A model generated the notes under the pieces. That model saw only the letters and a list, made by a program, of their open reading frames with translations. It searched no databases and had not been told where the DNA came from. Below are positions 15,340 to 64,000 of a DNA stretch of 64,000 bases, one piece after another (position 1 is the stretch's first letter; every line of letters starts with the position of its first letter). The DNA comes from a virus: the UHGV virus genome UHGV-0382128; one strand, 5' to 3'. Position numbers and translations under genes: made by a program.

Positions 15340-18300
15340 TTATTTAAGTGTCGCGGGTAAATCAGGCACAGCTTCCCCATCGAGTATACGCCCGATGAGA
15401 ATCCCGGCTTGTTCACCTACAGCATTCGCGGTACCGATACGTTGGATTGAACCTACGATACGCGCATCGACAGAATCACGACCGAACAACACGTCCAGGT
15501 CATCACCATCCTCTGTTTTGTTGTCGCCGTACATGACTTCTTGTACGGTGGTTTTTAGCTGGTTAGCAATAACCATCTTATCCGCAGCGGCCATCTCAAC
15601 GTCGTGTGTAATAAAGAATCGAACACAAAGTGAGTTAAAGGCTAATGGTACACCTTCGACACGGTAGTCGCCGTTTACACTGCCTGAAACCGGATCACCT
15701 CGCCCGACTGCCAAAGCGGCTTTACGACGAATTCTGTCGTATTTACGCACCAGTTCAGCAAGGCTTGGTGTCATGTCTTCGGTTTCACCGTGATACACCA
15801 CTTCGATCTTATCCACGATACCACGTACCCCTGCACGAGGTGCGTACGAACTTAAACTTTGCAACGTTGCGGCTGCTTCCTGACTAAAGGCACTCATATC
15901 GCCTGTCAAGTCGTCAGTAAACGTGCATAGGATTGTATCGACGTCTACGTGGTCGCCCTCATTCACGATTTCCAAAAGCATCTGGTTGCTGTTAATCGTC
16001 ACTTCTTTCAGCTTTGTTACCTGCCCCACCATTTTCTTCGCGAACCGTTCAGAAATTGCGTTGGAGTCTTCGATAACTTCTTCAGCTTCTAATAAAGCAA
16101 CGGTAGCCAGCACCCCGTTTTTCCAGGAAACCTGAGTAGGATCGTAAATATCAGGTTCAAAGTGTTGCTCGTTGTACGTAATCACTGCTCCGGCCGGGAG
16201 CTTGTCACCGGCTTTCCAGCGTGTTACCAAGGTGTGCGGATAGAAGGTACCTTCGTGGGGGCCGAACCAGCGCCCTAGAGGAAAAGCTTCTTTACTTCCA
16301 TCTTCGTACGTAATTTCAATGTGGTCTTTCGACAGACCAGTAATCTTACCTGCTTTATCAATAACGCGTGCATGTTTCACCGAAGTACGGTGTGCGACGA
16401 ATTTCTCCTGTTCAGTACGATACGGGGTTGTGGTTGCCCCAATACAACTGGTGGCAGAACCTAACTGAATCCCAACGAAGTTTTGACGCTTTGCGTCGTC
16501 CATTAACGTATCTGGTACTAACCCGTCAATAAACGAAAGGGTGTCGCTTGGTTTCGGGGTTTTCTCTTCACGTTTAAATGTAGTACCGTCAACGGTGTCA
16601 AAACGTGGGTTATTGGTGACGAAAGCAGTAATACCTACGTCGCCGTTATCTACGGTGTTACCCGAGACTATCCCGATATCGCTGGGTTGGAACTCACGTG
16701 TGTGGTAGACCATCGTTTTACGATTACGACCACCTGTACCCCCCATCGTAATAACGTCTTTTTCTTTAATTGACTGGATAGGGTTAGCACCTGGTGCCAA
16801 AAGTACCGACGGGTCGGAGTTAATTGCACCCCAAACCATGTCTTGCGTCAGTTCGAACTTACGGTTACTGCCCGGTGCGTTATTGTAGTTACGCATCGCT
16901 CTGACCATCGCGGTATAGATGTGGTAGGCAATCCTCTGATTTCCTAAGAACATCATTTCATCGCCGTTAATCTCTGGTAAAGAGTGGTCAGTTTGTAACA
17001 GTTCGTTAGAACGTTCCAACAAGCCAATAAAGGTTTCCGGTTCACCCATTTTCCTGAGGATACGTGCGTGCATGTCGTCAACAAACGCGGACCGCATCTG
17101 TTTCAGCTCATTGATGTACCGTGGTGTTAGGCCATCTGCATCACGTAATAAGTTCAGGTAAATGTCTTCGCGGTCTGCTTCTGATTCAGTATAAGCAACC
17201 AGGTGTTTGAGATAGCGATCCAAACCATGCAGAATCATCTTCTGCTGATCGTTATCGCATGTAACTAAAAGTTTACAGTCTTGTAGTCGAATAATACTGT
17301 CGTAGGCATTCTTATCAACACGCTGCCCTGCGGGAACCAACTCGTACTGGATACCGAAATGTTTCAACATTCCCTGGAGTCCAAGGTAGAACGAGAAGAT
17401 AAAACCAAGCGACAAAGATTTACCCATCAAAGACAGCTCGGTCATTTCGCGAGGCACTTTCTGGTTATTAAAGCCCAGTACCTCTGCGATAGTTCCCACC
17501 GGCTCAACTTTGTTTCCGTTCACACCGTAAAGCATGGATTTGTCATCCATTGCCAGTATTGTTTCACTGCGCGGACGTTTCGCCACTGGCAAAAGTTTGG
17601 CAGCATCGGCGTCTCTGAGTTGTTCGTCGTTAAAGAAGTTAACGGCTTCTTTGTAGTCGAAGTTCCACATATAGCCATTCGCATTAAAGCTGGCAATACG
17701 ACGTGCAATCTCCGTATACTGACGAGGCAGATGTTGCGTAGGATCGAACACATTTGCTAAACGTGCATCGGTGACTTCGGTGTTTGTCGGGTCAACAGCG
17801 CGTGTGATAATCGCGTTGGTTAACCAACGACCGTAGTCGTTTGCGACCTTATCACTACGACGGACAAAGTTTTTACCGTATGCGGTAGTCAGTGCGACAG
17901 TATCCGGCGCAACCTTACGAATCGGTAAGTCCACACGTTGCCGACGCATGGTGTATTCGACACCATTAGCTACCCAAGTACCGTCCTCGGTCAAGCCTGG
18001 GATAGAGAAGCGAACGGTTGTTGGCTCACCACCGACTGGTTGAACACGTAAAGTGTGGTGCTCGATAGTCCCTGTAACAGAAACTTCTTTTTCCACCGTG
18101 TGATTGTGAATCGCCAGACCCAAACGTTGTGAGCTGGCGACCGCCGCCAGCACGTCCTTGGTCATCATGGTCTGGTTGTACTGTTTCATCATCTGGTCAG
18201 TGACGTTCTCGGCCCACCCTTCGTCGGTAACAAGTCGCTGAACCTTTTTCGGCTCGGCTTTAACGACGACATCTTTCTCGTGAACAGTAAGTGCTTCCCC

Positions 18301-19506
18301 GTAGGTTTCTTTCGGGTTATACGGGTTAGGCAGCTGAACGAAACGTTTAGACGATTCTGACAGGAACTGATATGCTTTAGAACTTAAGCGGCCCGCTTCA
18401 GCTAAGCGTTGTGCTTCTTGTTTAATAATTTCGTCATGCGGAATGACTTTCTCGACAACAATTGTCGTCGGTTTGACGTCTTCCTTCGGTTCTTCAATAA
18501 CAACGTCTTCTTTTTCATCGAAGGTGTTATCGGATTCGACCACAGCGTCATTAACAACGTCGTCATCATCGACAACATCAACGGTTTCTTCTTCGACGTC
18601 TTTAAGGAAAACACGTTCGTCGCCTTCAGGCGTTAGGAATTCCGCTTCGTACGCATTAGACGGCGCTTGTGTCATTACACGCACTAGCGTACGGTAGAAC
18701 ATCCTGGCCATTTGATCGTCACTTAAACGACCGCCGGAGGACTTACGCATTTTCTCTACAACACCCATGTTCATGGACGTAAAGCCCGTGTTGTGGGTGA
18801 AGATAAAGTTCATTCGTGACAGCTGAGTTAAATCCATTCCCGCGAATAAGGAATCGGATTGTTTTCCATAAGCCCAAGCAAACAACTCCAATAACCACAG
18901 CAAGTTGAAGTCCTGGAACTTCTCAATCTTGCTTTTAACACGGTCGTTATAGGTTGTTTGAAACTTCTGGAACGAGGGTAATGTCGAACCCAGTTCAATA
19001 ACGAAATAGTTCTGACGCATGTATTCTTGCGTGTCGTATTTGAACTGGTTAATCATCAACAGTTGGATGTTACGCAATCTATCGTACCAGGCTAACTGGG
19101 TATCAGGATAGTAGTAGTGCGATAGCATCGGCGTGTAGTTCTCGATCAGGAGAACTTTTAAGTCTTTGCGAACCAGTTCGTCTGAGGTAAGACGACGCAT
19201 CGGGCGGTTTGCACGGTGGTAGGCAAAGATAGCACGTTCTTGCCCCTGAACAGGTTTGTTGCGCGGATGTCCGCTAATACCGTCTTCCGGTAATTTAAAG
19301 TGGTGACGAACCTGTGCAGGTTTTTCTAACGGTTGAATAATCTCGAGTGTTGCAGGCGGCGCTAACACCACCTGGTCGAGATCAATGACATGGAGTACAG
19401 AACCTCGCGGTATCTGTAGCTTCTCGAGCGGGATAATCCTCGGATTACCAAACTCGTCGGTTTTACGCACCGAGAAGCGTTGGTTAAACTGTTTAATGAG
19501 CAGCAT
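15340..19506 (-). CDS. Multisubunit RNA polymerase beta-like subunit, N-terminal fragment (1388 aa)
   Basis: Near residues ~940-1045: GGTGGRNRKTMVYHTREFQPSDIGIVSGNTVDNGDVGI and TTPYR, resembling the bacterial beta region [36 protein letters not shown]...ETPYR. Protein ends before the beta C-terminal GDKxxxRHGNKG region, and lies 10 nt downstream of the beta-prime-like gene. Confidence 0.55.
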   Translation of the reverse strand: MLLIKQFNQRFSVRKTDEFGNPRIIPLEKLQIPRGSVLHVIDLDQVVLAPPATLEIIQPLEKPAQVRHHFKLPEDGISGHPRNKPVQGQERAIFAYHRANRPMRRLTSDELVRKDLKVLLIENYTPMLSHYYYPDTQLAWYDRLRNIQLLMINQFKYDTQEYMRQNYFVIELGSTLPSFQKFQTTYNDRVKSKIEKFQDFNLLWLLELFAWAYGKQSDSLFAGMDLTQLSRMNFIFTHNTGFTSMNMGVVEKMRKSSGGRLSDDQMARMFYRTLVRVMTQAPSNAYEAEFLTPEGDERVFLKDVEEETVDVVDDDDVVNDAVVESDNTFDEKEDVVIEEPKEDVKPTTIVVEKVIPHDEIIKQEAQRLAEAGRLSSKAYQFLSESSKRFVQLPNPYNPKETYGEALTVHEKDVVVKAEPKKVQRLVTDEGWAENVTDQMMKQYNQTMMTKDVLAAVASSQRLGLAIHNHTVEKEVSVTGTIEHHTLRVQPVGGEPTTVRFSIPGLTEDGTWVANGVEYTMRRQRVDLPIRKVAPDTVALTTAYGKNFVRRSDKVANDYGRWLTNAIITRAVDPTNTEVTDARLANVFDPTQHLPRQYTEIARRIASFNANGYMWNFDYKEAVNFFNDEQLRDADAAKLLPVAKRPRSETILAMDDKSMLYGVNGNKVEPVGTIAEVLGFNNQKVPREMTELSLMGKSLSLGFIFSFYLGLQGMLKHFGIQYELVPAGQRVDKNAYDSIIRLQDCKLLVTCDNDQQKMILHGLDRYLKHLVAYTESEADREDIYLNLLRDADGLTPRYINELKQMRSAFVDDMHARILRKMGEPETFIGLLERSNELLQTDHSLPEINGDEMMFLGNQRIAYHIYTAMVRAMRNYNNAPGSNRKFELTQDMVWGAINSDPSVLLAPGANPIQSIKEKDVITMGGTGGRNRKTMVYHTREFQPSDIGIVSGNTVDNGDVGITAFVTNNPRFDTVDGTTFKREEKTPKPSDTLSFIDGLVPDTLMDDAKRQNFVGIQLGSATSCIGATTTPYRTEQEKFVAHRTSVKHARVIDKAGKITGLSKDHIEITYEDGSKEAFPLGRWFGPHEGTFYPHTLVTRWKAGDKLPAGAVITYNEQHFEPDIYDPTQVSWKNGVLATVALLEAEEVIEDSNAISERFAKKMVGQVTKLKEVTINSNQMLLEIVNEGDHVDVDTILCTFTDDLTGDMSAFSQEAAATLQSLSSYAPRAGVRGIVDKIEVVYHGETEDMTPSLAELVRKYDRIRRKAALAVGRGDPVSGSVNGDYRVEGVPLAFNSLCVRFFITHDVEMAAADKMVIANQLKTTVQEVMYGDNKTEDGDDLDVLFGRDSVDARIVGSIQRIGTANAVGEQAGILIGRILDGEAVPDLPATLK

Positions 19507-19515
19507 TGCTTAGCC

Positions 19516-21135
19516 TTATGGGTTCTTTAATAACGCTTGCGTTGCACGTTTAATCACGTTGTTGATAGGATTGATTTTAAAGTTCCCATCAGAATCGAAC
19601 CAGTAGTTTTTCGAGTGTATCCAGTTCCGGTTTTCCTCGAGCGCTTCCTGGGACATAGGCGCGTTAAACGACCCGGTATCGCCATCGTAGTCACCCCCTA
19701 ACCCACCTAGGCGTGAAGGGTGTGGTGCCATAGACTCAACGAAGGTAGGAACCGACCGGTCAGGGTAGCTGATAGCCCCTCGGGGTTTTTCAGTTTCCCA
19801 GTCATCTTCCAGTTCTTTTAAATATAAAGATGACGTGGTGGTCTCCAATCTTATGGTCGATGAATACGTCGAGCCTCGGCCTGTAACGGGATAACGTGTA
19901 ACGAAACCGAAATAATCGTTCCAAAGTTCGTAGCCCGACAAATAAAGCAATTCGACGAGTGTCATACCGTGAACGAATTTTCGGTCAAACGTTTTAGGAA
20001 GTTCTTCAATATCGTAGAACACCTTAAAATGTTTGGTGTCTTGGTAAACCAACGCAACGTAGTGGGTGTCGTCCAACATAATCGGTTGATGGCGAAGCTC
20101 GCGAGCTTCCATTCGGTTGATTAAGGATTCAATCCCATCGTCGGTGGTAAAGGTGTCGTATACACGACCACCTACTTCCAAGAATTCACGTTTAAGGGTT
20201 TTGGTGTTTACGCCGTAAAGGTTGCCATCGCCAGCACGGATGTTACCGAGGTAACGTTCGCGTATCTGGTACTGCGCAACGGGGAGTAATGCTTTTAAAC
20301 CCTGGTATAAACCAATTTTGGTGTCGGTGGGACGAATAGCGTCTTCACGACCCATGCATTTAGACCCCGTCGAGAACGAGGACAGTACGTTACGTGTCCC
20401 GTTCATTAACTTACGAGACGTCACTTTACGACGTTGGAAACCCCCTTTACCGTCCTGGATGTTAAAGAAATACATCCAGATATCATTGAAGGTTTGTTGA
20501 AGTTTCCAGCGTACGGGGTTAGTTAACTCGACACGGGTTGCCCGGTCAGGGATCGCCCTGGCGAGAGATACCAACCGACGATACATCCCGCCGATTTCTT
20601 CTTCTTGCTCTCTACCATCTTGTCGAATTACTAAATCGCGTAAACCCGCGGGTAACACGAGAACGTATCGACTAAGACTAACGGGACGGAATTTCAAAAA
20701 GAAATCCACGGTTTCGTCACGTTGTAGAGACTCGTTACGCTTAGGTTTTAAATCGTTATAGTGACTGAGGAAGAAGTTAAAACCGGTATCTGCGCCTGGG
20801 TCTCCCGGCAAGGCCGGTTCGAAATCTTTTTCTTTTTCGCTCCAGGTTGCGTAGCGTTTTCCAGAACAAATTTCTTCGTAGAGTTGTTTGAGTTGGAATA
20901 ACGCCAAACACACTGTCGGCGAAATGATATCGAGCTTAATATCGATATAAGAGAATGTAGAGTCTCGCGCTTCACTACCCGTGAGTCCAAAAATCTCTGT
21001 AGAGTAAAGACCTTCGGGGTGAAAGTTTTTTGTTAACCCCTGGAAAGTATCCGTGGTCGTGACGGGTCGTAATCGCGACACAAGAGACTTGTTTACATTG
21101 AGCAGATAAAAGTCAACCCAATTAAGTTTATTCAC
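19516..21135 (-). CDS. Multisubunit RNA polymerase beta-prime-like subunit, N-terminal fragment (539 aa)
   Basis: GKGGFQRRKVTSRKLMNGTRNV resembles beta-prime [22 protein letters not shown]; C-terminal GGDYDGDTGS matches the NADFDGD Mg-binding motif; ORF ends ~50 aa after it. Confidence 0.65.
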   Translation of the reverse strand: MNKLNWVDFYLLNVNKSLVSRLRPVTTTDTFQGLTKNFHPEGLYSTEIFGLTGSEARDSTFSYIDIKLDIISPTVCLALFQLKQLYEEICSGKRYATWSEKEKDFEPALPGDPGADTGFNFFLSHYNDLKPKRNESLQRDETVDFFLKFRPVSLSRYVLVLPAGLRDLVIRQDGREQEEEIGGMYRRLVSLARAIPDRATRVELTNPVRWKLQQTFNDIWMYFFNIQDGKGGFQRRKVTSRKLMNGTRNVLSSFSTGSKCMGREDAIRPTDTKIGLYQGLKALLPVAQYQIRERYLGNIRAGDGNLYGVNTKTLKREFLEVGGRVYDTFTTDDGIESLINRMEARELRHQPIMLDDTHYVALVYQDTKHFKVFYDIEELPKTFDRKFVHGMTLVELLYLSGYELWNDYFGFVTRYPVTGRGSTYSSTIRLETTTSSLYLKELEDDWETEKPRGAISYPDRSVPTFVESMAPHPSRLGGLGGDYDGDTGSFNAPMSQEALEENRNWIHSKNYWFDSDGNFKINPINNVIKRATQALLKNP

Positions 21136-31087: not shown

Positions 31088-31152
31088 AAAAAGAAAAAAA
31101 ATAAGAAAGTTAACCTACCTCCGAAGGGAGGTAGGTGCTTTTATTTATTTCG
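31088..31152. terminator. Bidirectional rho-independent terminator
   Basis: A-run, stem cctacctcc / ggaggtagg with loop gaag (31114-31135), then tgcttttatttatttc; between convergent genes. Confidence 0.8.
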
Positions 31153-32002
31153 CCAAGTCTGCTTCTTTTACAAAGATGCCGTCGGCGTTCAGGTAACCTT
31201 TACGGTCTTTGATTTCATGCCAGGCTAAAGAGAAGCAATGGCGAATATCCAATTTATAATACAAGGCGATACGAGCAAGATGGGCTAAACCCAGGCTAAC
31301 GAAATCGAAACCATGATCTTTACCTTCCATAAAGGTTGTGGCAAAACTTTCAATAGCGTGAAGGTATTGTTGATGTGGGTATCCAGCGTTGTTTAAATTT
31401 TCTTCAACTTCAGCTACATCTTCCACGTCTAAGCGTAGACCAGACTCGATGCAGTCTTCTGCCACTGTAAGGTAACCAGAATTTGCATCCCCTAATTCGA
31501 TGATGTTTACCAGAACCACCAACGCGTCGCCGATACCATCCATGATCATTTCAGGTTTGTTTTTACTGATGCCCGCCGCAATTTCACCTAACTCTTCAAA
31601 GAACTTCGTGATTTGGGTTTCCAGTTTGCCGTTATCGAGAATCCCACGTTCTTTAGACCAACCTTTAACGAGTTTTACACATTTTGCGATCGTGCAAACT
31701 AGAACAGATTCTGTATGCATTACCGTACCGTTATAAACGGCATCGGTAAGCTTAATAGGCGCTACAATCGTTTCAATATCCAGTTCTTGATTACCGGTGT
31801 GGCGTTTACCTTCTACACGAATACGGTTGGTACCAGGGTTTACACCAATTGTGTAAATAGCATCGAACTGTACTGCATTCTCATTCAGAGCGCGCAGTTG
31901 CGCGTTAACTTCTTCCAGGTGTTGACCAGGATTAACCACGATGTTGTAAATAGTGTTGATGTCAAAACGTTCGCCCATTTTAAACTCCATTAGATTAAAC
32001 AA
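31145..32002 (-). CDS. Putative MazG-like nucleotide pyrophosphohydrolase domain protein (285 aa)
   Basis: ITKFFEELGEIAAGISKNKPEMIMDGIGDALVVLVNIIELGD resembles the MazG/HisE-type EExxE...D helix pair; N-terminal part unknown. Confidence 0.4.
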   Translation of the reverse strand: MFNLMEFKMGERFDINTIYNIVVNPGQHLEEVNAQLRALNENAVQFDAIYTIGVNPGTNRIRVEGKRHTGNQELDIETIVAPIKLTDAVYNGTVMHTESVLVCTIAKCVKLVKGWSKERGILDNGKLETQITKFFEELGEIAAGISKNKPEMIMDGIGDALVVLVNIIELGDANSGYLTVAEDCIESGLRLDVEDVAEVEENLNNAGYPHQQYLHAIESFATTFMEGKDHGFDFVSLGLAHLARIALYYKLDIRHCFSLAWHEIKDRKGYLNADGIFVKEADLAK

Positions 32003-33413: not shown

Positions 33414-34448
33414 TTAGACAGCTATGGGAGCTTTAATTGTGTCGTGTGATTGATACCCAACCAATTCGAAGTCTTCGTATTTGTAATCGAAGATGGAATC
33501 AGGTTTACGTTTGATAACCAGTTTAGGTAGCGGGTAAGGTTCGCGAGTAAGTTGTAGTTTTGCCTGCTCCAGATGGTTAGAATACAGATGAACGTCTACA
33601 CCACTATAAACCAACTCGTCTGGAACCATGTTCAACTGCTGTGCAATCATGTGAGTTAACAACGCGTACGAAGCGACGTTAAATGGCGCGCCGAGTAGGT
33701 AATCGTTGCTCCGCATCATGTAAAAACATGAAAGCTTCCGACGTGGAATGTCCTCACGATCTAAAATTTCATGAAGTCGCTCTTCATCATCAATATCTTC
33801 GTGATTAATAAGCGGTGCGCTCGCAAATTTTTCCGGTTCGTTTACTTCGTACCAATCCAGTCGTTCAAGCAACGTCATTTCCGTTGTGTAGAATTGGAAA
33901 TAGTTGTGGCATGGGTTAAGTGCCATATCGTCCAGGTCACCTACATTCCAGGCACTAACAATAATACGACGGGAGTCAGGGTCTTCACGAAGTTGCTGGA
34001 TAACTTTACTGATCTGGTCATGTGCTTTTTCATAGACCAAATACGTCGTACCGTCTTCCTTCATATTCCCAATATACTTGTAACCCCGCTGCATTAGTTG
34101 TTGTGTACGTCTTACGTCATGACACTCCACAACTTTACAGTCGCGCCATTCACGCCATTGTTTACCATAAACTGGTCCTAAGTTCCCCTCTTCATCACTC
34201 CATTCGTTCCAAATTTTTACCCCGTTCTCTTGCAGGTACTTCACGTTAGTGTCACCATTTAAGAACCACAGCAGTTCATGAATGATACTTTTCAGGTGAA
34301 CCTTTTTCGTAGTAACTAATGGGAAACCTTCTTTTAGGTCGAAACGTAGTTGGCGACCAAATACAGAAAGTGTCCCTACGCCTGTACGGTCTTTCTTGAC
34401 AACACCGTTATCTAGAATGTCTTGCATTAACGCTAAATACTGTTTCAT
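33414..34448 (-). CDS. thyA: Thymidylate synthase (344 aa) with two insertions
   Basis: Near-identical blocks to E. coli ThyA (MKQYL.LMQ..L..G....[53 protein letters not shown]). Two in-frame insertions of roughly 33 and 46 aa. Confidence 0.9.
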
Positions 34449-37248: not shown

Positions 37249-38090
37249 TAGATTAATCCCATACTTTCACTGACGCTCGTAATGTCGAACGTTGTGTCGT
37301 TAAAGTCGATGTTTTCTACAATAGAAACCACCAGATTAGGAAGCCATTCTGAATGGGGTGGTGTAATAACCCGGCCGTTCATAACGTAGTAATGCAAGAA
37401 CGGTAGTCCCATCGAATGGCAGTACGATAACACATTACCTAAGCAACTTCCGTCAAACTTCAAGAGTCGGAGCTTACGCAGTAATGCGTTTTGAAATGCA
37501 CCGCTTGCGTAATTGCTAAACTCGCCAGGTCGATAATCCGTGCCCCCGTAGATACTCGCCTTTAATCGCCGACCGCGTTGTATACATTCAGCCCCAGTCA
37601 GGGTTCGTAATAAACGAATGTCTGGATATTCAGTTTCCAAACGACCCAAAGCGTTTATTCCGTAGCCCTTGTAGAACAGATAGTCTACGATCCTTAAATA
37701 ATGATAGTAACCTTCCAACGTTAAAAACTGACCGTGAATTGTGTCGAATTTAGCACCGTTAGGTTGCGCGTAGAAGTTACTGATCATTTTCCCTACGGTA
37801 GTACGACCGTTAGAGTAAAGGTTAAGGTGGTTGATACCGTCGGTAAAAGGGAGTTTTTCGGGTAACGCACAAACGTAGCCTAAACGACGAAGGTATAGGA
37901 CATAAACAAAGCGCTCATCAGGAGTAAGCACAATGTTTGACGCGTTAACGTATGTATTAGGATTATTTCGGCCAGGTTGATAACCCAGCGTTAAAGCCAA
38001 TGCTTGATTGTCTTCGCTCTGACTTTTGATCTTCTTTAATACGGAACGCAGTAATTGTGGTTCGGTCATAACCGGCCTCTTAAATTGCAA
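37248..38090 (-). CDS. Hypothetical protein (280 aa)
   Basis: ORF only. Confidence 0.5.
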   Translation of the reverse strand: MQFKRPVMTEPQLLRSVLKKIKSQSEDNQALALTLGYQPGRNNPNTYVNASNIVLTPDERFVYVLYLRRLGYVCALPEKLPFTDGINHLNLYSNGRTTVGKMISNFYAQPNGAKFDTIHGQFLTLEGYYHYLRIVDYLFYKGYGINALGRLETEYPDIRLLRTLTGAECIQRGRRLKASIYGGTDYRPGEFSNYASGAFQNALLRKLRLLKFDGSCLGNVLSYCHSMGLPFLHYYVMNGRVITPPHSEWLPNLVVSIVENIDFNDTTFDITSVSESMGLI

Positions 38091-39381
38091 AATAGTCTTC
38101 CACGATTTTATCGGTAGACTGGTAACTTACACTGCCTGCAGCAATCACGTAATTACGTTTCTCAGTGGTCAGTAGTGCCTGAATCGCATTTACGCCCGCG
38201 TAGGTGTAAAGTTTAAGTTCAGTCATCTCCGGCGTGATGTTCTTCGCTTTGTCCCACTTTGCATCTAATCCTTTAAATAGTGTTAATAGGCGAGTACCAT
38301 ACGTTTTGAATCTGACACCAGGTTCAACCCGAAGGTTAGCCATGAGGTTTTGGATAACGGTGGCTGCGATCTGAGTCCCTTGTCCCGGTTGCAGTTTATC
38401 CAGATAGTATTCCGTTGAATCCAGATTACCTGTCGCTGCCGCCTGAATCATCAGCTCGCCGTACAGTACCTCTTTTGCTTGTGTGTCGGTAATCGCTTGA
38501 AGCATCGGCTCAATTTTAGCCGGTAAACCATAACTGTTCAGTTTGGTAGAGAGGCCATAAATCAGCGCCGAAGAGGTATTAATGTCTAACGCGGAGAAAC
38601 TGTTGCTGCCTTTAAAGCTATTAATCAGGTTATCGATGGCTAAGAAGTCATCTAAGTCTTTGTAGCTGTCGAAAGTATGTTGTACGTCATCAACGATCGA
38701 AGTGATTTGATAACGCATACTGTTGACTTCAGACATAAACCCGTTGACTTCTTGACTAACTTCCGAGGGGAGTTTAGCCAGTTGTCCAGCAATGTTCATC
38801 GTCCCTTCGAGACGTTTTTTCACCGAGTTAAAGTCAGTACCGATACCGGATAAAACGGAGTCGGTTAAGCTGCCGATGCTGTCCCACCCTTTACCTAACA
38901 GCTTCCCCATCCCACCTGGACTTAGGTAGTCTAGTGCTTTTAGGCCATCTTCATCCTTTTTCTTAAAGGGTTCAGAAACGTCACGCTTTTGTGGGTCGAG
39001 GACAGGAAGCGTTTCTTTGGTATTAGATGCAAAACCGGGAACCTTTTGTCCTGGCGACACCCCGGAGGCTGAACTCCCCGCAGTCTTAGTTCCCCCAACA
39101 CTGGCGGTATCGCTACCGCCAAAAAGGTTACCAATTTTGCTGGTCAGCTCGTTGCCGCCGCTAATGAGTTTGTTGAAAGTTTCACCAGCGCGGTCTGATA
39201 GTCGGCTGACGCTATCGACCGTGTTCTTAATACCACGCTCCGCATTTTCCACTGTTGTTTGTACGCGGTTTGTGGCGCTCTTTGCCGTATTAACGGAATT
39301 ATCGATTGCCGACTGACCTTTATTTATCTGACTGGTTATTTGGTCGATTTTCATTCTGGTCTCCAATTTGGTATTCGTCAA
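38080..39381 (-). CDS. Hypothetical protein (433 aa), Ser/Gly/Thr-rich with coiled-coil-like N-terminus; possibly virion internal protein
   Basis: Composition only; start may be the downstream Met (~39354). Confidence 0.45.
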   Translation of the reverse strand: MTNTKLETRMKIDQITSQINKGQSAIDNSVNTAKSATNRVQTTVENAERGIKNTVDSVSRLSDRAGETFNKLISGGNELTSKIGNLFGGSDTASVGGTKTAGSSASGVSPGQKVPGFASNTKETLPVLDPQKRDVSEPFKKKDEDGLKALDYLSPGGMGKLLGKGWDSIGSLTDSVLSGIGTDFNSVKKRLEGTMNIAGQLAKLPSEVSQEVNGFMSEVNSMRYQITSIVDDVQHTFDSYKDLDDFLAIDNLINSFKGSNSFSALDINTSSALIYGLSTKLNSYGLPAKIEPMLQAITDTQAKEVLYGELMIQAAATGNLDSTEYYLDKLQPGQGTQIAATVIQNLMANLRVEPGVRFKTYGTRLLTLFKGLDAKWDKAKNITPEMTELKLYTYAGVNAIQALLTTEKRNYVIAAGSVSYQSTDKIVEDYFAI

Positions 39382-42909: not shown

Positions 42910-42952
42910 TCGGGTAGGGTTTACCCTACCCGATCCTATTTATTTCTTTTTC
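42910..42952. other. Perfect hairpin (cgggtagggt/accctacccg) overlapping the 3' end of the recombinase-like gene; T-run on the plus side only
   Basis: Stem 42910-42920 / 42923-42933, then tcctatttatttctttttcg on plus; on the coding (minus) side it is followed by an SD, not a T-run. Confidence 0.5.
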
Positions 42953-44436
42953 GTCAGGAACTTCGGTTCTAGTCCATCGACAGCCATACCCAGAATAGTA
43001 CGTGCAGTCAGTGTACGTTTACCACCTTTGGTTTCCTGGTCTTTAAACATCCAGTATTCTACCGTGTTATCCAGAATTTCATTCCAGTCCCACTTCTCGT
43101 CAATCAGTTTGTAAATCTCACCCATGCTGAGATGATACTTCATTTCAAGACGGTGGTAGTTGTTTTGCATATACGCGATTGCCGCCGTGATTTCTAAAGC
43201 GCGACGTAAGCGTGCGTTATCAGAAATCATATCACGGATTGTCGTACGTTGGAATTTCACACCAGGTAAAATGTCCAGTTCTTTGATAGAACCGCCACTA
43301 CCGCTTGACGTAAAACCAAAGTCTGACTTCTTCAGCGTGTCACTTAAATAGTGCCACAGGCTCAGGTGATATAACAGACCCATTTCCTGAGAGAAGATCA
43401 TCTGGAATTTCACACCGGTGTGACCACCCTTCGCACGATACTGAGTAAAGGTGATAATCTTCAAGTCGTTTACCGAAGCATTCATCGCTTTAGAACGTGA
43501 CGTCGGATAAAGTTCTTCGTTAACACCGGTCTGTGCGTTATAGCTCTGGTCTTTCTTCAACTCCCCTGATTTCGTCGCGACGATAAAAGAGTTTGTTAAA
43601 AAGCTAAGCTGACGGCGAGGAATACCTGCGAATTTTAAATCGTCGTTGGCATCGTCAAGAATTTTCGCATTTGCTTTTTGTGCCTGACGACCACCTGCCA
43701 TCGCTTTCCCAGAGTCATCGGCCATCTGTGCCACGAAACCCATATAGAAACCACCGCGTGCAAACGCAGACGGCCAGCGGCTCATCATGTTCGATTTTTG
43801 CAGTGCATCGTGGGCGTTCAGGATGTTCTGATCAGAATCACCGATATCTGTTTTTGCGTGTTTGTCTTCCAGCGAACTGGAATGCCACTCTGACAAAGAG
43901 TCGATAGAATAAAGCCAGGGGTCCAGGATTTCTTTTAACTTCCGACGAACCGGATCGGGGAACGGCGTTACACGGGTTTTACCAGACATATACTGCTTGA
44001 AGCGTTTTTCAACTTCGTCACGAATATAATCACTGTAATACTGTTCCCCAGGCATTACATCAGAACCGACCAGGTTATAACGACCTTCGTGGATGAGTTC
44101 CAATACGGACGTTCCGTCGTCGATACCGTTGGCGTTCATGGCAGAGATGTACCCAGTTTCTAAACGATCGAGGGCGGCGGACACTTCTGTATCGTACTTA
44201 GAACCCCACTCTGCTTTATAACGTTGCAGGATTTGGAAGATACAGAAATCTAACAAAGTGGATTTAAAGGTGTTACCGCGACCTGCGAAACCCATGATGT
44301 GGGCAAAACCACCGTTAAGGTAGTACAAACCATCTTCACCTTTTTCGTAGTTACCTAAGGCATGATCCATGATGGTGTAAACGTTAAAACGTGGACGAAT
44401 TACTTCACCGATAACTTGCTTAGTTGGGCCTGCCAT
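42940..44436 (-). CDS. Putative UvsX/RecA-like recombinase (498 aa)
   Basis: MGFAGRGNTFKSTLL resembles the T4 UvsX P-loop LAGPSKSFKSNFGL; preceding TIMDHALG resembles the RecA/UvsX N-terminal segment. Confidence 0.45.
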   Translation of the reverse strand: MAGPTKQVIGEVIRPRFNVYTIMDHALGNYEKGEDGLYYLNGGFAHIMGFAGRGNTFKSTLLDFCIFQILQRYKAEWGSKYDTEVSAALDRLETGYISAMNANGIDDGTSVLELIHEGRYNLVGSDVMPGEQYYSDYIRDEVEKRFKQYMSGKTRVTPFPDPVRRKLKEILDPWLYSIDSLSEWHSSSLEDKHAKTDIGDSDQNILNAHDALQKSNMMSRWPSAFARGGFYMGFVAQMADDSGKAMAGGRQAQKANAKILDDANDDLKFAGIPRRQLSFLTNSFIVATKSGELKKDQSYNAQTGVNEELYPTSRSKAMNASVNDLKIITFTQYRAKGGHTGVKFQMIFSQEMGLLYHLSLWHYLSDTLKKSDFGFTSSGSGGSIKELDILPGVKFQRTTIRDMISDNARLRRALEITAAIAYMQNNYHRLEMKYHLSMGEIYKLIDEKWDWNEILDNTVEYWMFKDQETKGGKRTLTARTILGMAVDGLEPKFLTKKK

Positions 44437-50411: not shown

Positions 50412-51080
50412 CTATCTAAGAATATTTTTAATGAAAAAAGGATCGGCTGTAAACTCCTTCACTTGTGAGTCATAACCCGAATGTATTTGATCGCTACTGA
50501 GCAAATACTGGTCTAGGTCGTGCGGAAGAATCCAAGAATCACCTTGCTTAAAAATACCATAATCTGCTGTTCCTGCGGAAAAAATGATTTCCTCTGGAAA
50601 CGAATAGACACGGCGTAAGGCAAGATCGGATGGCTTTAACACGATTAATCGAACGGGATGTTGACTGACTGCCTCTTTAATAAACTGTTCACGATTAAAC
50701 CAAATTATTTTTTCGGGGTAAGTTTCGAATTCAGCCCATGCCCGCGTGATAACTAATTTGGAAATCTTTCTCAATTCTTCAGAACGCTCTGCGTAGCCGA
50801 TGCACTCCTTGCGTACTTCATGATTTTCTATCGATGTTGTGAATTTTTGGAATAGGTGTTGTTGGAAAAAGCCGTTCTCCGGGATATCACAACCCGCGTT
50901 GTATAGTGCTATGATCTCCCACAACAACGAAAGAGAAAACACAAATGCTAACTTTTCCACAACTTCCCAATCTTCGGAGTAAGGGGCTTTAAAGCCCCAA
51001 TACTGCCGTGCGTTATACATAAAGTGAGTTTGTAAAAACCGAGGGGCTTTTGACAAGACCTCACTATAAACGATCAGCAT
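50412..51080 (-). CDS. Hypothetical protein (222 aa)
   Basis: ORF; 7-nt overlap with the RNase H gene. Confidence 0.45.
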   Translation of the reverse strand: MLIVYSEVLSKAPRFLQTHFMYNARQYWGFKAPYSEDWEVVEKLAFVFSLSLLWEIIALYNAGCDIPENGFFQQHLFQKFTTSIENHEVRKECIGYAERSEELRKISKLVITRAWAEFETYPEKIIWFNREQFIKEAVSQHPVRLIVLKPSDLALRRVYSFPEEIIFSAGTADYGIFKQGDSWILPHDLDQYLLSSDQIHSGYDSQVKEFTADPFFIKNILR

Positions 51081-52594
51081 TCAAGCTCCTTATCCGTCAA
51101 TATTCGTTTGTTTGAATAATAGCCGCACCACAAACCATGATATTTTTCCCCGATATAAACCAACGCGTATTCGATATACTGCCGTTCTGGACGACGTACA
51201 GCCACGTAAAACCGCCCTTCCGGTTCTTTGATACGGTTGATTTCCGTACGCGTCGGTATGTCGATACCTCGAGTAAGGATAGCTTTAACCTTGTTTTTAC
51301 TACCAGGGATCTTGATGGTTACGTCAAAACCTTTATCTACGTTACGATAAATGTCTTTCTTCGGCTTACCTTTCTCATCGTAAAGTACGTCAGTAATGTC
51401 ATTCAACACTACTGAGTTTTTCCCTTCCATGGCATCGCGTAACCAACCTGCAAGCTCATCACGAATCGCAATACAACGATAAGATAATAGCGCAGGACGA
51501 AGAATTCGTGTAATCGAAAGATCTTCAAACATCCACAGGTTTTTGTCTTCACTAAAATGCATCCGATCGATAGGAATGCCGTTAGCAGCGGCTTCTGCGA
51601 ACTTCTTGCGCTTTACGAATAAGTTAAAAACAACGGCGATTGGATCAAATTGACGTAAACGGGGCACCCCTTCCCACGCTTTCGCAGAATGGGTATTTAC
51701 CAACTCGTATACGTTATCCCACGGTTCTTTGGTAAACATTACGCAGAATTGTGCATCTGGAATGTACTTACCAACGAAGACGATATCATCCTTCTGTTTT
51801 GCGTGGTTTCCACCGAACATGTAATAAAGTTTATTACCGTTAACTGTAACAGTGGGGTGAGGCTCGTTCACCATCGGGTAACAGAACTTCGTAACACAGA
51901 TATCGGGAAAAGTGGACAAATTGACACCCTCACCAACAACTTCCGGTTGCTGTTCTTCCTCAGGCAGTTCGTCTTTTGACCAATACGGTGTATAGTCTAA
52001 CCCCTCCCCTCGGGCAGAGATAATTGAGCCTTTCCGCGCTAACTCGTCTGCGCGTTCGTTTCCATAACGTCCAGAGTGGCCTTTAATTTTAAGGACACGA
52101 ACACCTTTCCCTTCTTTCTTTAAGCGCTGTTTAACCACCCACATCCGTTGGATTAATTCCAGATTCGCAATAGGTGTACCGTCCGCACGACGCCAACCAC
52201 GTGCTGCCCAACCATCAATCCAGTCGTTATACGTGTTGACAACGTAAGATGCGTCGATATAGATAACGTAGTTTTTGGCAACGAAGGGGGCGTGTTCGAA
52301 GACGGTCAGGAAAGCCACGAGTTCTGCAACGTCGGAGTGTGACATTTTTGGTACAGGAACAACTCCGTCAATAAACTCCACGGTTTCTGGTAAAGGCGGA
52401 AGTTTTTCATCTTTGTTTATCTGGCGGTATCCTGACGTCGTAATCCCCTCGGGAATAGTGGGATGGCGGTAAACCCGACCATCCTCAATCGCTTCACGAT
52501 TAAATAAGTATCCATGAATCCCCGCCCCTGTACCGAGCGGGGAGGTCAAATGGCTACCGTCCGTGTAAATTACTGCAACATCAACGTTCTTCAT
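51074..52594 (-). CDS. RNase H (RNase HI-like) domain fused to a ~310-aa C-terminal domain of unknown function (506 aa)
   Basis: N-terminus carries the full RNase HI pattern: IYTDGS, AELVAF, IYIDASYVVN...W..GW, IKGHSGRYGNERADELARKG (cf. E. coli RnhA FTDGS...E...STDSQYV...VKGHAGHPENERCDELAR). Confidence 0.8.
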   Translation of the reverse strand: MKNVDVAVIYTDGSHLTSPLGTGAGIHGYLFNREAIEDGRVYRHPTIPEGITTSGYRQINKDEKLPPLPETVEFIDGVVPVPKMSHSDVAELVAFLTVFEHAPFVAKNYVIYIDASYVVNTYNDWIDGWAARGWRRADGTPIANLELIQRMWVVKQRLKKEGKGVRVLKIKGHSGRYGNERADELARKGSIISARGEGLDYTPYWSKDELPEEEQQPEVVGEGVNLSTFPDICVTKFCYPMVNEPHPTVTVNGNKLYYMFGGNHAKQKDDIVFVGKYIPDAQFCVMFTKEPWDNVYELVNTHSAKAWEGVPRLRQFDPIAVVFNLFVKRKKFAEAAANGIPIDRMHFSEDKNLWMFEDLSITRILRPALLSYRCIAIRDELAGWLRDAMEGKNSVVLNDITDVLYDEKGKPKKDIYRNVDKGFDVTIKIPGSKNKVKAILTRGIDIPTRTEINRIKEPEGRFYVAVRRPERQYIEYALVYIGEKYHGLWCGYYSNKRILTDKELEC

Positions 52595-61903: not shown

Positions 61904-62083
61904 CTAATTCCGCCATTCGCATTCGCGTTGACGCCAAATTGAACCCCACGATAGTTTAATCAGATAAGATGAAACTACCCATAAAATCATCACCACACAA
62001 AACATGACATAAAGAACCGCTAGAATGGACATGAAGCCAAACCCTGCCGCATCCACAATACGACGGAACCAATCAGTTTGCAT
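61904..62083 (-). CDS. Small membrane protein (~59 aa)
   Basis: Track ORF 61904..62089 begins at a TTG; ATG at 62083 (MQTDWFRRIVD...) has SD aggag. TM FGFMSILAVLYVMFCVVMILWVV. Confidence 0.35.
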   Translation of the reverse strand: MQTDWFRRIVDAAGFGFMSILAVLYVMFCVVMILWVVSSYLIKLSWGSIWRQRECEWRN

Positions 62084-64000
62084 AAACAATTTTTACTCCT
62101 TCGTTATACACCGCAGGCAATGTCACTCCTTCCGGTTCGATGACACAGTACGATGCTTCATTAAGTTTAGAATGGACCTCAGCTTCGTGGGAAACTACCA
62201 AGAGTTGTGAAAATTCTCCCGAGTTTGCTAACGTTTTAATAAAGCCGACCAGGTTATTACGGTGTTCCTCGTCCATGCCTTCCGAAGGCTCATCCAAAAG
62301 CAACGGAAACTGATGCAACTTCAGCGCTTTGTACGCAGTCAGTCTGAACATCAGATTAAATATAGCACGCTGTGCCTTAGACCCTTTACGCACGTCAGGA
62401 ACAGGCTCAGGGTGCGTTTTTAGCTGGACAGGAAAAGTATAATCCAAATCGCCGTCAGTGAGATCACAGGGCATAACACGCATGGGGTACGTCCAGACCT
62501 GTTCGATATAACGCGTCATTAACTCTGTGATTCTAACGATAGCGTTGTAAAAATACTTTCTAAGTACACCCTTTTCTGGCGAGAAGGCTTGAATCATCAG
62601 TTTGTTATTGAACTGCTGGGCTTGTAAGTCAGCAAGTTCACGTTCCAAACTGTTGAGTTGGTTCAATTCATTTTCCATCTGACGATAACGCTCGCGTGCG
62701 GTTGTAAAAGCATCCAGCTTCCCTTCCCGCACTCGTAAGAGTTCCTCGACGACCGTATTTGTCAACGTAACCTTAACATCACTCTCTAACCGTTCGAATA
62801 ACGCACTGAAATCATCTACAGCACGTTTAACATTCACTAGATAGGTAAGTGTCGTGTTAGCCAGTTCGTGCTCTCTACGACGCATTGAGAGCATCTCTGT
62901 GGCTTTACCTAATCGCGACTGTTGGAAGGCGATTTTCTGTTGTAAAGCACCATCGACGTTACCAACGGCCGCTACGGCATCCTGCCATTCTTTTTCCGCT
63001 TTCACTAACCGTTGTCGGGTTTCATGGTACTCAATAGCAGAGTACAATTCACCGTCAAACGCTGCACATAGACTCCCGAACTGCTCGCGAGATTCTGTGA
63101 AAACGTTACGTTCTTGCAAACGCTTAAAGAACATGCTCAATATCGGGTCCTTTGAATACGTCAGCACAATCTCACGAACCTGCCGCATATAAGTTACATC
63201 AGATTCTAATTCAACACGATCGCGTAATAAGGTCTCTAGCTGTGTTTGAAGTTCCGTCCGTTGCTGCTGTTGACCACGAATCGATGACTCGAGTTCAGGT
63301 AAAGAACGCGTAACACCTGGCCGAAACTTAAACCGACACTGCGGACAATCCACTTCTGCCGTTTCTAAGTAGTGGTTACGTTCGTGATTTAAATTCTGTA
63401 AAACGTTCTCCACTCGCTGGAGTCTATCCCGTAATCCTGCGGTTTTTTGATCCATCACCAGAAGACGTTCTTCCAAAACATTGAGTTTCTCGGTTGAATG
63501 AATAGCGTCCAGTGTTGTTCCCAACCGTTGTCCCCAAACACGCGCATCGGTAGCCGCACGAAGTTGGTCTAAATTAACGTTATCGTTAAATAAACCTGGA
63601 AAGAGATGTTCGGTGTCCCACTTGGTAAGTAACTCACGTAAACGTGCCAGTGTGTTCTTGAGACCTTCGTGGTTCCGCATCAGGTAGTCTTGTCGTGTTG
63701 ACTCATCCATCAATAGCGATAAATCTTTATTCAACATCGATACCTCTGTTTCGGTAGAAACGACGGCTTCGCGGGCTGTCGCTTCATTTTGTCGGGCGGC
63801 CAGTATCTGTTCATCAGTAGGCAACCCACCACGATGTTGTAATATTGCGTCGATGGTTGGACCCAAACCGTTTAATAACGCTTGGATTGTTTCGATCGTG
63901 ACAGCACGATTTAATCCTGGCAACTGTTCGATTTCTCGGTTCAGTTCACGTAAATCCGATTCCAAACCTTTTAATCTCGTTGCTAATTGTTGTCGTTCTT
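62073..64000 (-). CDS. SbcC/Rad50-like recombination-repair ATPase, partial (N-terminus outside right edge)
   Basis: Long coiled-coil with zinc-hook-like CPQC (DCPQCRFKF), C-terminal FPLLLDEPSEGMD (Walker B/D-loop). Reading frame is open from 64000; the track start at 63965 is a TTG. Confidence 0.6.
   Translation of the reverse strand, partial: ERQQLATRLKGLESDLRELNREIEQLPGLNRAVTIETIQALLNGLGPTIDAILQHRGGLPTDEQILAARQNEATAREAVVSTETEVSMLNKDLSLLMDESTRQDYLMRNHEGLKNTLARLRELLTKWDTEHLFPGLFNDNVNLDQLRAATDARVWGQRLGTTLDAIHSTEKLNVLEERLLVMDQKTAGLRDRLQRVENVLQNLNHERNHYLETAEVDCPQCRFKFRPGVTRSLPELESSIRGQQQQRTELQTQLETLLRDRVELESDVTYMRQVREIVLTYSKDPILSMFFKRLQERNVFTESREQFGSLCAAFDGELYSAIEYHETRQRLVKAEKEWQDAVAAVGNVDGALQQKIAFQQSRLGKATEMLSMRRREHELANTTLTYLVNVKRAVDDFSALFERLESDVKVTLTNTVVEELLRVREGKLDAFTTARERYRQMENELNQLNSLERELADLQAQQFNNKLMIQAFSPEKGVLRKYFYNAIVRITELMTRYIEQVWTYPMRVMPCDLTDGDLDYTFPVQLKTHPEPVPDVRKGSKAQRAIFNLMFRLTAYKALKLHQFPLLLDEPSEGMDEEHRNNLVGFIKTLANSGEFSQLLVVSHEAEVHSKLNEASYCVIEPEGVTLPAVYNEGVKIVYAN

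Follow-up and report, generated by a model that had tools for sequence, protein, structure and literature searches.

Two adjacent polymerase genes

We analysed a stretch of 64,000 nucleotides (nt) from the UHGV virus genome UHGV-0382128 (the 64-kb window, in which all positions are counted) and focused on two adjacent genes that code for proteins of 539 and 1388 amino acids (aa; Table 1). An earlier reading of the DNA letters, here referred to as the original prediction, had taken them for beta-prime-like and beta-like fragments of a split multisubunit RNA polymerase (RNAP). Both open reading frames (ORFs) and all the motifs quoted in that prediction were found in place. The results reported here, namely homology, domain boundaries, conserved catalytic residues, orthology and synteny, indicate that the two genes are very probably those of the N-terminal beta-prime subunit (beta-prime-N) and of the beta 'N' subunit (beta-N) of a split virion RNAP (vRNAP) of the phiKZ/SPN3US type, a reading to which we assign a probability of about 0.93.

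The 539-aa ORF begins with GTG, 7 nt downstream of an AGGAG Shine-Dalgarno sequence, and the 1388-aa ORF begins with ATG, 9 nt past the stop codon of the former. Given this short gap and the TAAGG contained in the junction, co-expression or translational coupling of the two genes is plausible. The DNA of the region is about 74-76% identical to that of Erwinia phage phiEaH2, which has the same gene layout, and of SPN3US-like Salmonella phages. The nearest protein matches of both products (93-96% identity) are located in contigs of about 220 kb from Salmonella enterica assemblies.

Table 1. Polymerase genes, their features and neighbouring genes in the 64-kb window, with the amino acid identity of orthologues in phage SPN3US
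Feature	Length or residues	Position	Strand	SPN3US orthologue	Basis or remark
beta-prime-N gene	539 aa	19516-21135	-	gp240 (86%)	vRNAP beta-prime N-terminal subunit; ORF call, profiles, AlphaFold2 model, orthology
GKGGFQRRKV...GTRNV block	aa 228-250	20386-20454	-		equivalent to beta-prime GKxGRFRxxLxGKRVDxSGRSV
DYDGD	aa 482-486	19678-19692	-		equivalent to Mg-binding NADFDGD loop of beta-prime
beta-N gene	1388 aa	15340-19506	-	gp241 (77%)	vRNAP beta 'N' subunit; ORF call, profiles, orthology
N-terminal alpha/beta domain	aa 1-287	18646-19506	-		without counterpart in cellular beta; AlphaFold2
A-x-E site at domain end	aa 283-287	18646-18660	-		AYE at 285-287
acidic linker, predicted disordered	aa 288-352	18451-18645	-		38% Asp plus Glu; pLDDT <50 at 288-327 and 341-352
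beta-homologous body	aa 383-1388	15343-18360	-		collinear with E. coli RpoB 13-1146 (greedy hhalign)
rifampicin-cluster/fork-loop-2 region	aa 905-958	16633-16794	-		aligned with RpoB 516-571 (hhalign)
E1146-D1147	2 residues	16066-16071	-		equivalents of beta E813/D814; VIEDS on NFEDS (hhalign)
K1310...K1318 in AADKMVIANQLKT	aa 1310-1318	15553-15579	-		equivalent to beta GDK(1065)MAGRHGNK(1073) (hhalign, HMMER)
beta-C gene	222 aa	41953-42621	-	gp218 (83%)	phrog_3233 'RNA polymerase beta subunit', E 6e-93
reported beta-prime-C gene	244 aa	12795-13529	-	gp244 (87%)	phrog_2926 'virion structural protein'
97-aa protein	97 aa			gp242 (65%)	
486-aa protein	486 aa	13542-15002	-	gp243 (56%)	
267-aa protein	267 aa	11960-12763	-	gp245 (81%)	prohead protease; phrog_3014
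2374-aa protein	2374 aa	21165-28289	+	gp239 (59%)	
phrog_6160 protein	331 aa	45651-46646	-		function of the family unknown
phrog_6160 protein	308 aa	46576-47502	-		function of the family unknown
nucleotide/DNA-metabolism genes		31145-32002, 33414-34448, 42940-44436, 51074-52594, 62073-63965	-		flank the module

The beta-prime and beta fragments

The 539-aa protein contains the motifs GKGGFQRRKV (229-238), GTRNV (246-250) and GGDYDGD (480-486), and 53 residues after the last of these it stops. In a family profile of 36 homologues (38-85% identical), residues K230, R241, G246, T247, R248 and V250 of the GKGG block are invariant, and so are D482, D484, G485 and D486. The GKGG block aligns with E. 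coli RpoC 333-356 in hhalign and with plastid and AR9 beta-prime in HMMER. Moreover, hhalign relates the profile to RpoC with 86% probability over the VLPxxLR/clamp-helix/GKxGRFR region (RpoC 217-356), where VLPAGLRD at about residue 160 is the counterpart of the beta-prime VLPPxLRP block. In HMMER, query residues 469-528 match E. coli beta-prime 447-507, with DYDGD on NADFDGD. The greedy top path of hhalign had put TTDDG on NADFDGD; we rejected this as a misalignment and relied on the HMMER alignment of DYDGD. Against the PDB, the best match of the profile is the beta-prime-N subunit of the non-virion RNAP (nvRNAP) of phage AR9 (7s00/7s01 chain d, E 2e-12), followed by plastid/cyanobacterial beta-prime/gamma (about 1e-9 to 1e-5) and bacterial beta-prime (about 1e-5). 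The protein has more than 1000 homologues in the protein database; the 120 listed are mostly 534-547 aa long, with some of 475-497 or 692 aa.

The structural comparison agrees with these results. The AlphaFold2 model of the 539-aa protein has a mean predicted local distance difference test score (pLDDT) of 80, and the top 50 PDB matches listed by Foldseek are all RNAP entries, mostly beta-prime/gamma chains, with AR9 in first place (E 2e-15 to 2e-11, probability 1.00). The template modelling (TM) scores are low, about 0.3, because an isolated multidomain chain is not arranged as it is in the complex. Profiles and model together show that the 539-aa protein is the N-terminal third of beta-prime, about 1-516 in E. 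coli numbering; this bears out the original prediction of a beta-prime fragment that ends soon after DxDGD. The N-terminal zinc ribbon is lacking: there are just three Cys, at 76, 90 and 260, without a CxC...CxxC pattern, and the zinc-ribbon region of RpoC (about 60-92) is a gap in the alignment. This loss sets the protein apart from the bacterial enzyme but is compatible with a place in the superfamily. A well-folded, beta-rich insertion of about 130 residues also separates the GKxG block from the DxDGD loop.

The naming of this gene in the databases is confused. The protein belongs to phrog_2986 (E 7e-234), which PHROGs labels "RNA polymerase beta subunit", and GenBank entries of the gp240-type gene in phiEaH2, SPN3US and other relatives read 'RNA polymerase beta subunit', 'RNA polymerase III large subunit' or 'hypothetical protein'. 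The label "beta subunit" is imprecise for a beta-prime-N gene. GenBank also has one gp241-type protein of a relative under the name 'RNA polymerase alpha chain'.

The 1388-aa protein carries GGTGGRNRK (922-930), DIGIVSGNTVDNGDVGI (943-959) and TTPYR (1026-1030). It belongs to phrog_3148 ("RNA polymerase beta subunit", E 0), and its homologues are 1384-1430 aa long. A family profile of 23 sequences matches the beta subunit of T. thermophilus (1119 aa) in the PDB with E 3.4e-14 (HMMER), in three collinear stretches: query 504-529 to 117-142, 981-1110 to 530-655 and 1295-1386 to 822-916. Against E. coli RpoB, hhalign gives 93% probability and E 2.7e-7 (query 906-1385, RpoB 516-1142). In the hhalign alignment GGTGGRNRKTMVYHTREFQPSDIGIVSGNTVDNGDVGI pairs with the fork/rifampicin block of RpoB, as the original prediction had proposed, DDAKRQNF pairs with HDDANRALMG, and AADKMVIANQLKT pairs with PGDKMAGRHGNKG, which holds K1065 and K1073. 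The catalytic candidates E1146, D1147, K1310 and K1318 are all invariant in the family profile. TTPYR, which had been put forward as the equivalent of ETPYR, aligns with PLVGTGME of RpoB instead. Opposite the rifampicin contacts D516, H526 and S531 of RpoB stand P905, E915 and T920, substitutions that would be consistent with the rifampicin-independent transcription reported for such phages (PMC13282480).

The 1388-aa protein ends at about RpoB 1142-1146 of 1342, and the C-terminal beta residues, about 200 in number (around H1237, GGQRFGEME and the clamp contacts), are absent. The original prediction was thus right that the protein is a beta fragment without the C-terminus, but its statement that the fragment ends before the C-terminal catalytic region does not hold, since equivalents of both the ED pair and the GDK...K motif are present. 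The protein thus comprises about 85% of beta (RpoB 13-1146) and an N-terminal extension, and lacks only the last 200 residues or so.

Nothing in cellular beta corresponds to the extension, residues 1-382. When residues 1-460 were modelled with AlphaFold2, the mean pLDDT was 78, with about 90 for the alpha/beta domain at 1-287. This domain is shared across the chimalliviruses and is nearly as conserved within the clade (44-84%) as the catalytic body, and the acidic linker that follows is the least conserved segment of the protein. In tblastn searches the domain was found in 180 phage genomes, almost always within vRNAP beta genes, at 20-26% identity; among these phages are Goslar, EL, OBP, RSL2, RAY and phiKZ-like Pseudomonas phages (about 22%). 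Foldseek found no convincing structural relative of the domain in the PDB (best E 0.14). The authors of the SPN3US study proposed a role for the N-terminal region of gp241 in directing the complex into the head (PMC5105663). In phage 201phi2-1 a propeptide of the beta subunit is cleaved off at TFE-275, whereas gp241 of SPN3US is reported to be unprocessed (PMC5694885). The TFE-275 position is close to the domain boundary that we found. At the exact end of the domain, AYE has the form A-x-E and resembles the S/A/G-x-E cleavage motif of prohead proteases. The domain could also be more than a capsid-targeting propeptide, namely a new functional module that enables the vRNAP to work without sigma, alpha or omega, possibly as a platform on which the five fragments assemble or as an intrinsic promoter-recognition or DNA-loading element; we regard this as unlikely.

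Orthology to SPN3US and the remaining subunits

We compared the ORFs of the window with the annotated SPN3US genome by BLASTP and found one-to-one orthology and conserved gene order across gp216-gp258 (Table 1). The vRNAP of SPN3US consists of gp241 (beta-N), gp218 (beta-C), gp240 (beta-prime-N), gp42 (beta-prime-M) and gp244 (beta-prime-C); mass spectrometry has detected each of them in virion heads, gp240 and gp241 are essential, and amber mutants in gp241, gp218 or gp244 are non-viable, with none of the five subunits left in the particle (PMC5105663, PMC5694885). Injection of the vRNAP and transcription of early genes by it have been described (PMC10612078, PMC13282480, Goslar preprint 10.64898/2026.04.21.720040). 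Orthology and synteny with SPN3US thus support the phiKZ-like jumbo-phage layout that had been predicted.

Four of the five vRNAP fragments are encoded in the window. The beta C-terminal region is probably supplied in trans by the 222-aa protein: it is the orthologue of gp218, which is essential and virion-borne in SPN3US (PMC5694885), and the RpoB segment with which it aligns starts exactly where the 1388-aa protein stops. The 244-aa protein, whose family has 427 representatives, would be beta-prime-C. For the gp42-like beta-prime-M, a 433-aa ORF (38080-39381) was considered, with a length near that of gp42, and was rejected as the orthologue of gp223. Since gp42 lies about 200 genes away in SPN3US, the beta-prime-M gene is expected outside the window. 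The original prediction had placed the missing halves elsewhere; for two of the three absent pieces this is corrected, as their genes lie in the window itself.

The orthologues of the gp245 protease and of gp243 are adjacent to the vRNAP genes, which thus sit within a conserved head-assembly module. The gp243 protein is a head protein in SPN3US and is reported to be needed to incorporate abundant ejection proteins. On the other side lies the divergent gene of the 2374-aa protein, separated from the beta-prime-N gene by 29 bp. This protein belongs to phrog_3201 and has a C-terminal transglycosylase region (about 1992-2259); GenBank relatives are named 'tail fibre', and SPN3US proteomics identifies gp239 as the tail tape-measure protein (PMC5694885). 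The original prediction had assigned the polymerase to the virion from this neighbour, a giant soluble lytic transglycosylase (SLT) protein. The assignment stands through orthology to gp240 and gp241, but the argument from the neighbour is weak, as gp239 is reported to be a tape-measure protein.

Several further observations concern the surroundings of the genes. Between 11000 and 22500, sigma-70-type promoter-like sites are depleted in a simple consensus scan (4 against 13.8 +/- 3.8 in shuffles), as might be expected if the host RNAP does not transcribe the genome; terminator-like hairpins in the same interval are at chance level. The nucleotide and DNA-metabolism genes that flank the module encode a MazG-like pyrophosphatase, a thymidylate synthase, a UvsX-like recombinase (gp216 orthologue), an RNase H-like ribonuclease and an SbcC-like protein. 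The two phrog_6160 ORFs adjoin and look like tandem paralogues, with ORF calls that overlap by about 70 nt.

Alternative explanations and known polymerases

If the two genes encode vRNAP subunits, beta-prime-N would contribute two conserved blocks (clamp-helix/LRP and GKxG...GxRxV) and the DxDGD loop that binds Mg, and beta-N would contribute fork loop 2 along with the ED and GDK...K motifs. Three further polypeptides would complete the active centre: the 222-aa beta-C, the 244-aa reported beta-prime-C and a gp42-like beta-prime-M. For virion packaging, injection and the early-gene role we draw on published work on SPN3US and phiKZ. The five fragments would assemble before incorporation into the prohead, be packed with the DNA and then be ejected into the cell, where early transcription by the enzyme would need no host RNAP, sigma, alpha or omega and would be insensitive to rifampicin.

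Several points weigh against this reading. Scans of both proteins against Pfam and NCBIfam gave no match, and it takes family profiles or structure to reveal the homology to RNAP. Single-sequence searches of the PDB were not significant: the 539-aa protein gave just a marginal match to plastid beta-prime (E 0.4, three collinear stretches) and the 1388-aa protein only spurious matches to laccase. The beta lobe region (about aa 383-905) is backed by the greedy alignment and one short motif only. The profile of the 222-aa protein matches RpoB weakly (hhalign, 31% probability, E 5e-4, RpoB 1131/1160-1310/1340), and a profile search of the PDB with this protein found nothing. A profile of 60 sequences built for the 244-aa protein detected no similarity to beta-prime, either in RpoC or in the PDB; its role as beta-prime-C therefore rests on the genetics and proteomics of SPN3US and on a weak published HHpred match (PMC5105663, PMC5694885). 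A gp42-like gene was not among the ORFs examined in the window. Finally, virion location and activity are known here by analogy with SPN3US and phiKZ.

The failure of the domain databases and the extreme divergence behind it would also suit catalytically dead proteins derived from an RNAP, kept for packaging or ejection or as structural proteins. The lost zinc ribbon and the several changed positions of GDKxxGRHGNKG (ADKMVIANQLKT) point the same way. Against this, the three catalytic Asp, the two ED residues and the two lysines do not vary among homologues whose identity falls as low as 19-38%, which indicates selection on the active site, and early transcription of phiKZ-like phages is independent of the host RNAP and has been attributed to the vRNAP (PMC13282480, PMC10612078). 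We therefore consider dead relics very improbable. An artefactual split, in which a frameshift, a sequencing error or pseudogenisation had disrupted a single rpoC- or rpoB-like gene, might be suspected from two co-oriented genes only 9 nt apart, but its chance is practically negligible. The two ORFs match different subunits, beta-prime and then beta, and so are not halves of one gene; each has its own start codon and ribosome-binding site; the gene boundaries are conserved in hundreds of genomes, with consistent homologue lengths; and mass spectrometry of SPN3US shows separate polypeptides of the expected size (PMC5694885).

The genes might instead belong to the second polymerase of such phages, the nvRNAP, which is made early and carries out middle and late transcription in the phage nucleus. 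The top sequence and structure match of the 539-aa protein in the PDB is indeed an nvRNAP subunit, AR9 beta-prime-N, but no vRNAP structure turned up for comparison in the PDB copy searched. Moreover, the 287-aa domain is unmatched in the PDB, which holds AR9 nvRNAP structures and presumably that of the phiKZ nvRNAP as well. The genes lie in the conserved head-gene module beside the prohead protease and the gp243 and gp244 orthologues, and their identity and full synteny with gp240 and gp241 link them to proteins found in purified virion heads (PMC5105663, PMC5694885). An nvRNAP origin is thus extremely improbable, and the vRNAP reading is the one that we retain.

Among known systems, SPN3US is the closest: the subunit lengths are the same or nearly so, the gene order matches, and a long N-terminal extension of beta-N has been noted for gp241 too (PMC5105663), although it is a different phage. 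In the vRNAPs of phiKZ (gp178, gp180, gp149, gp80, plus gp176) and 201phi2-1, beta and beta-prime are likewise divided into five pieces, and the head-gene surroundings, with a tape-measure/SLT protein and a protease, are shared; the vRNAP is packaged and injected and performs early transcription (PMC8287921, PMC10612078, PMC5694885); their overall identity to the present proteins is only about 20-30%. The nvRNAPs of jumbo phages (AR9, PDB 7S00/7S01; phiKZ) are likewise split in beta and beta-prime and work without alpha or omega. However, they are synthesised after infection and not packaged, they have an extra promoter-specificity subunit (phiKZ gp68, AR9 gp226), and they appear to be without the 287-aa N-terminal domain, as this domain has no match in the PDB. 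With bacterial RpoB and RpoC the motifs are collinear (LRP, GKxGRFR, DFDGD, fork loop 2, ED and GDK...K). The beta-prime subunit is naturally split in cyanobacteria and plastids too (gamma/RpoC1), but relative to the bacterial, cyanobacterial and plastid enzymes the split points differ, falling after about 516 in beta-prime and after about 1146 in beta. Compared with bacterial RNAP, the present proteins have no zinc ribbon, and they have the beta-prime insertion, the extra N-terminal domain of beta and the substituted rifampicin contacts. No alpha, omega or sigma partners are known (PMC13282480).

The vRNAP system described here is already known, as the two proteins are orthologues of the experimentally characterised gp240 and gp241 of SPN3US, and nothing biologically new is added to the picture of phiKZ/SPN3US-like phages with a split, injected RNAP. 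The gain lies in annotation: four genes of the window are identified (beta-prime-N, beta-N, beta-C and the reported beta-prime-C), and the common GenBank label on the beta-prime-N gene is corrected. What merits further attention is the N-terminal domain of beta-N alone, as it occurs family-wide and its fold has no relative in the PDB.

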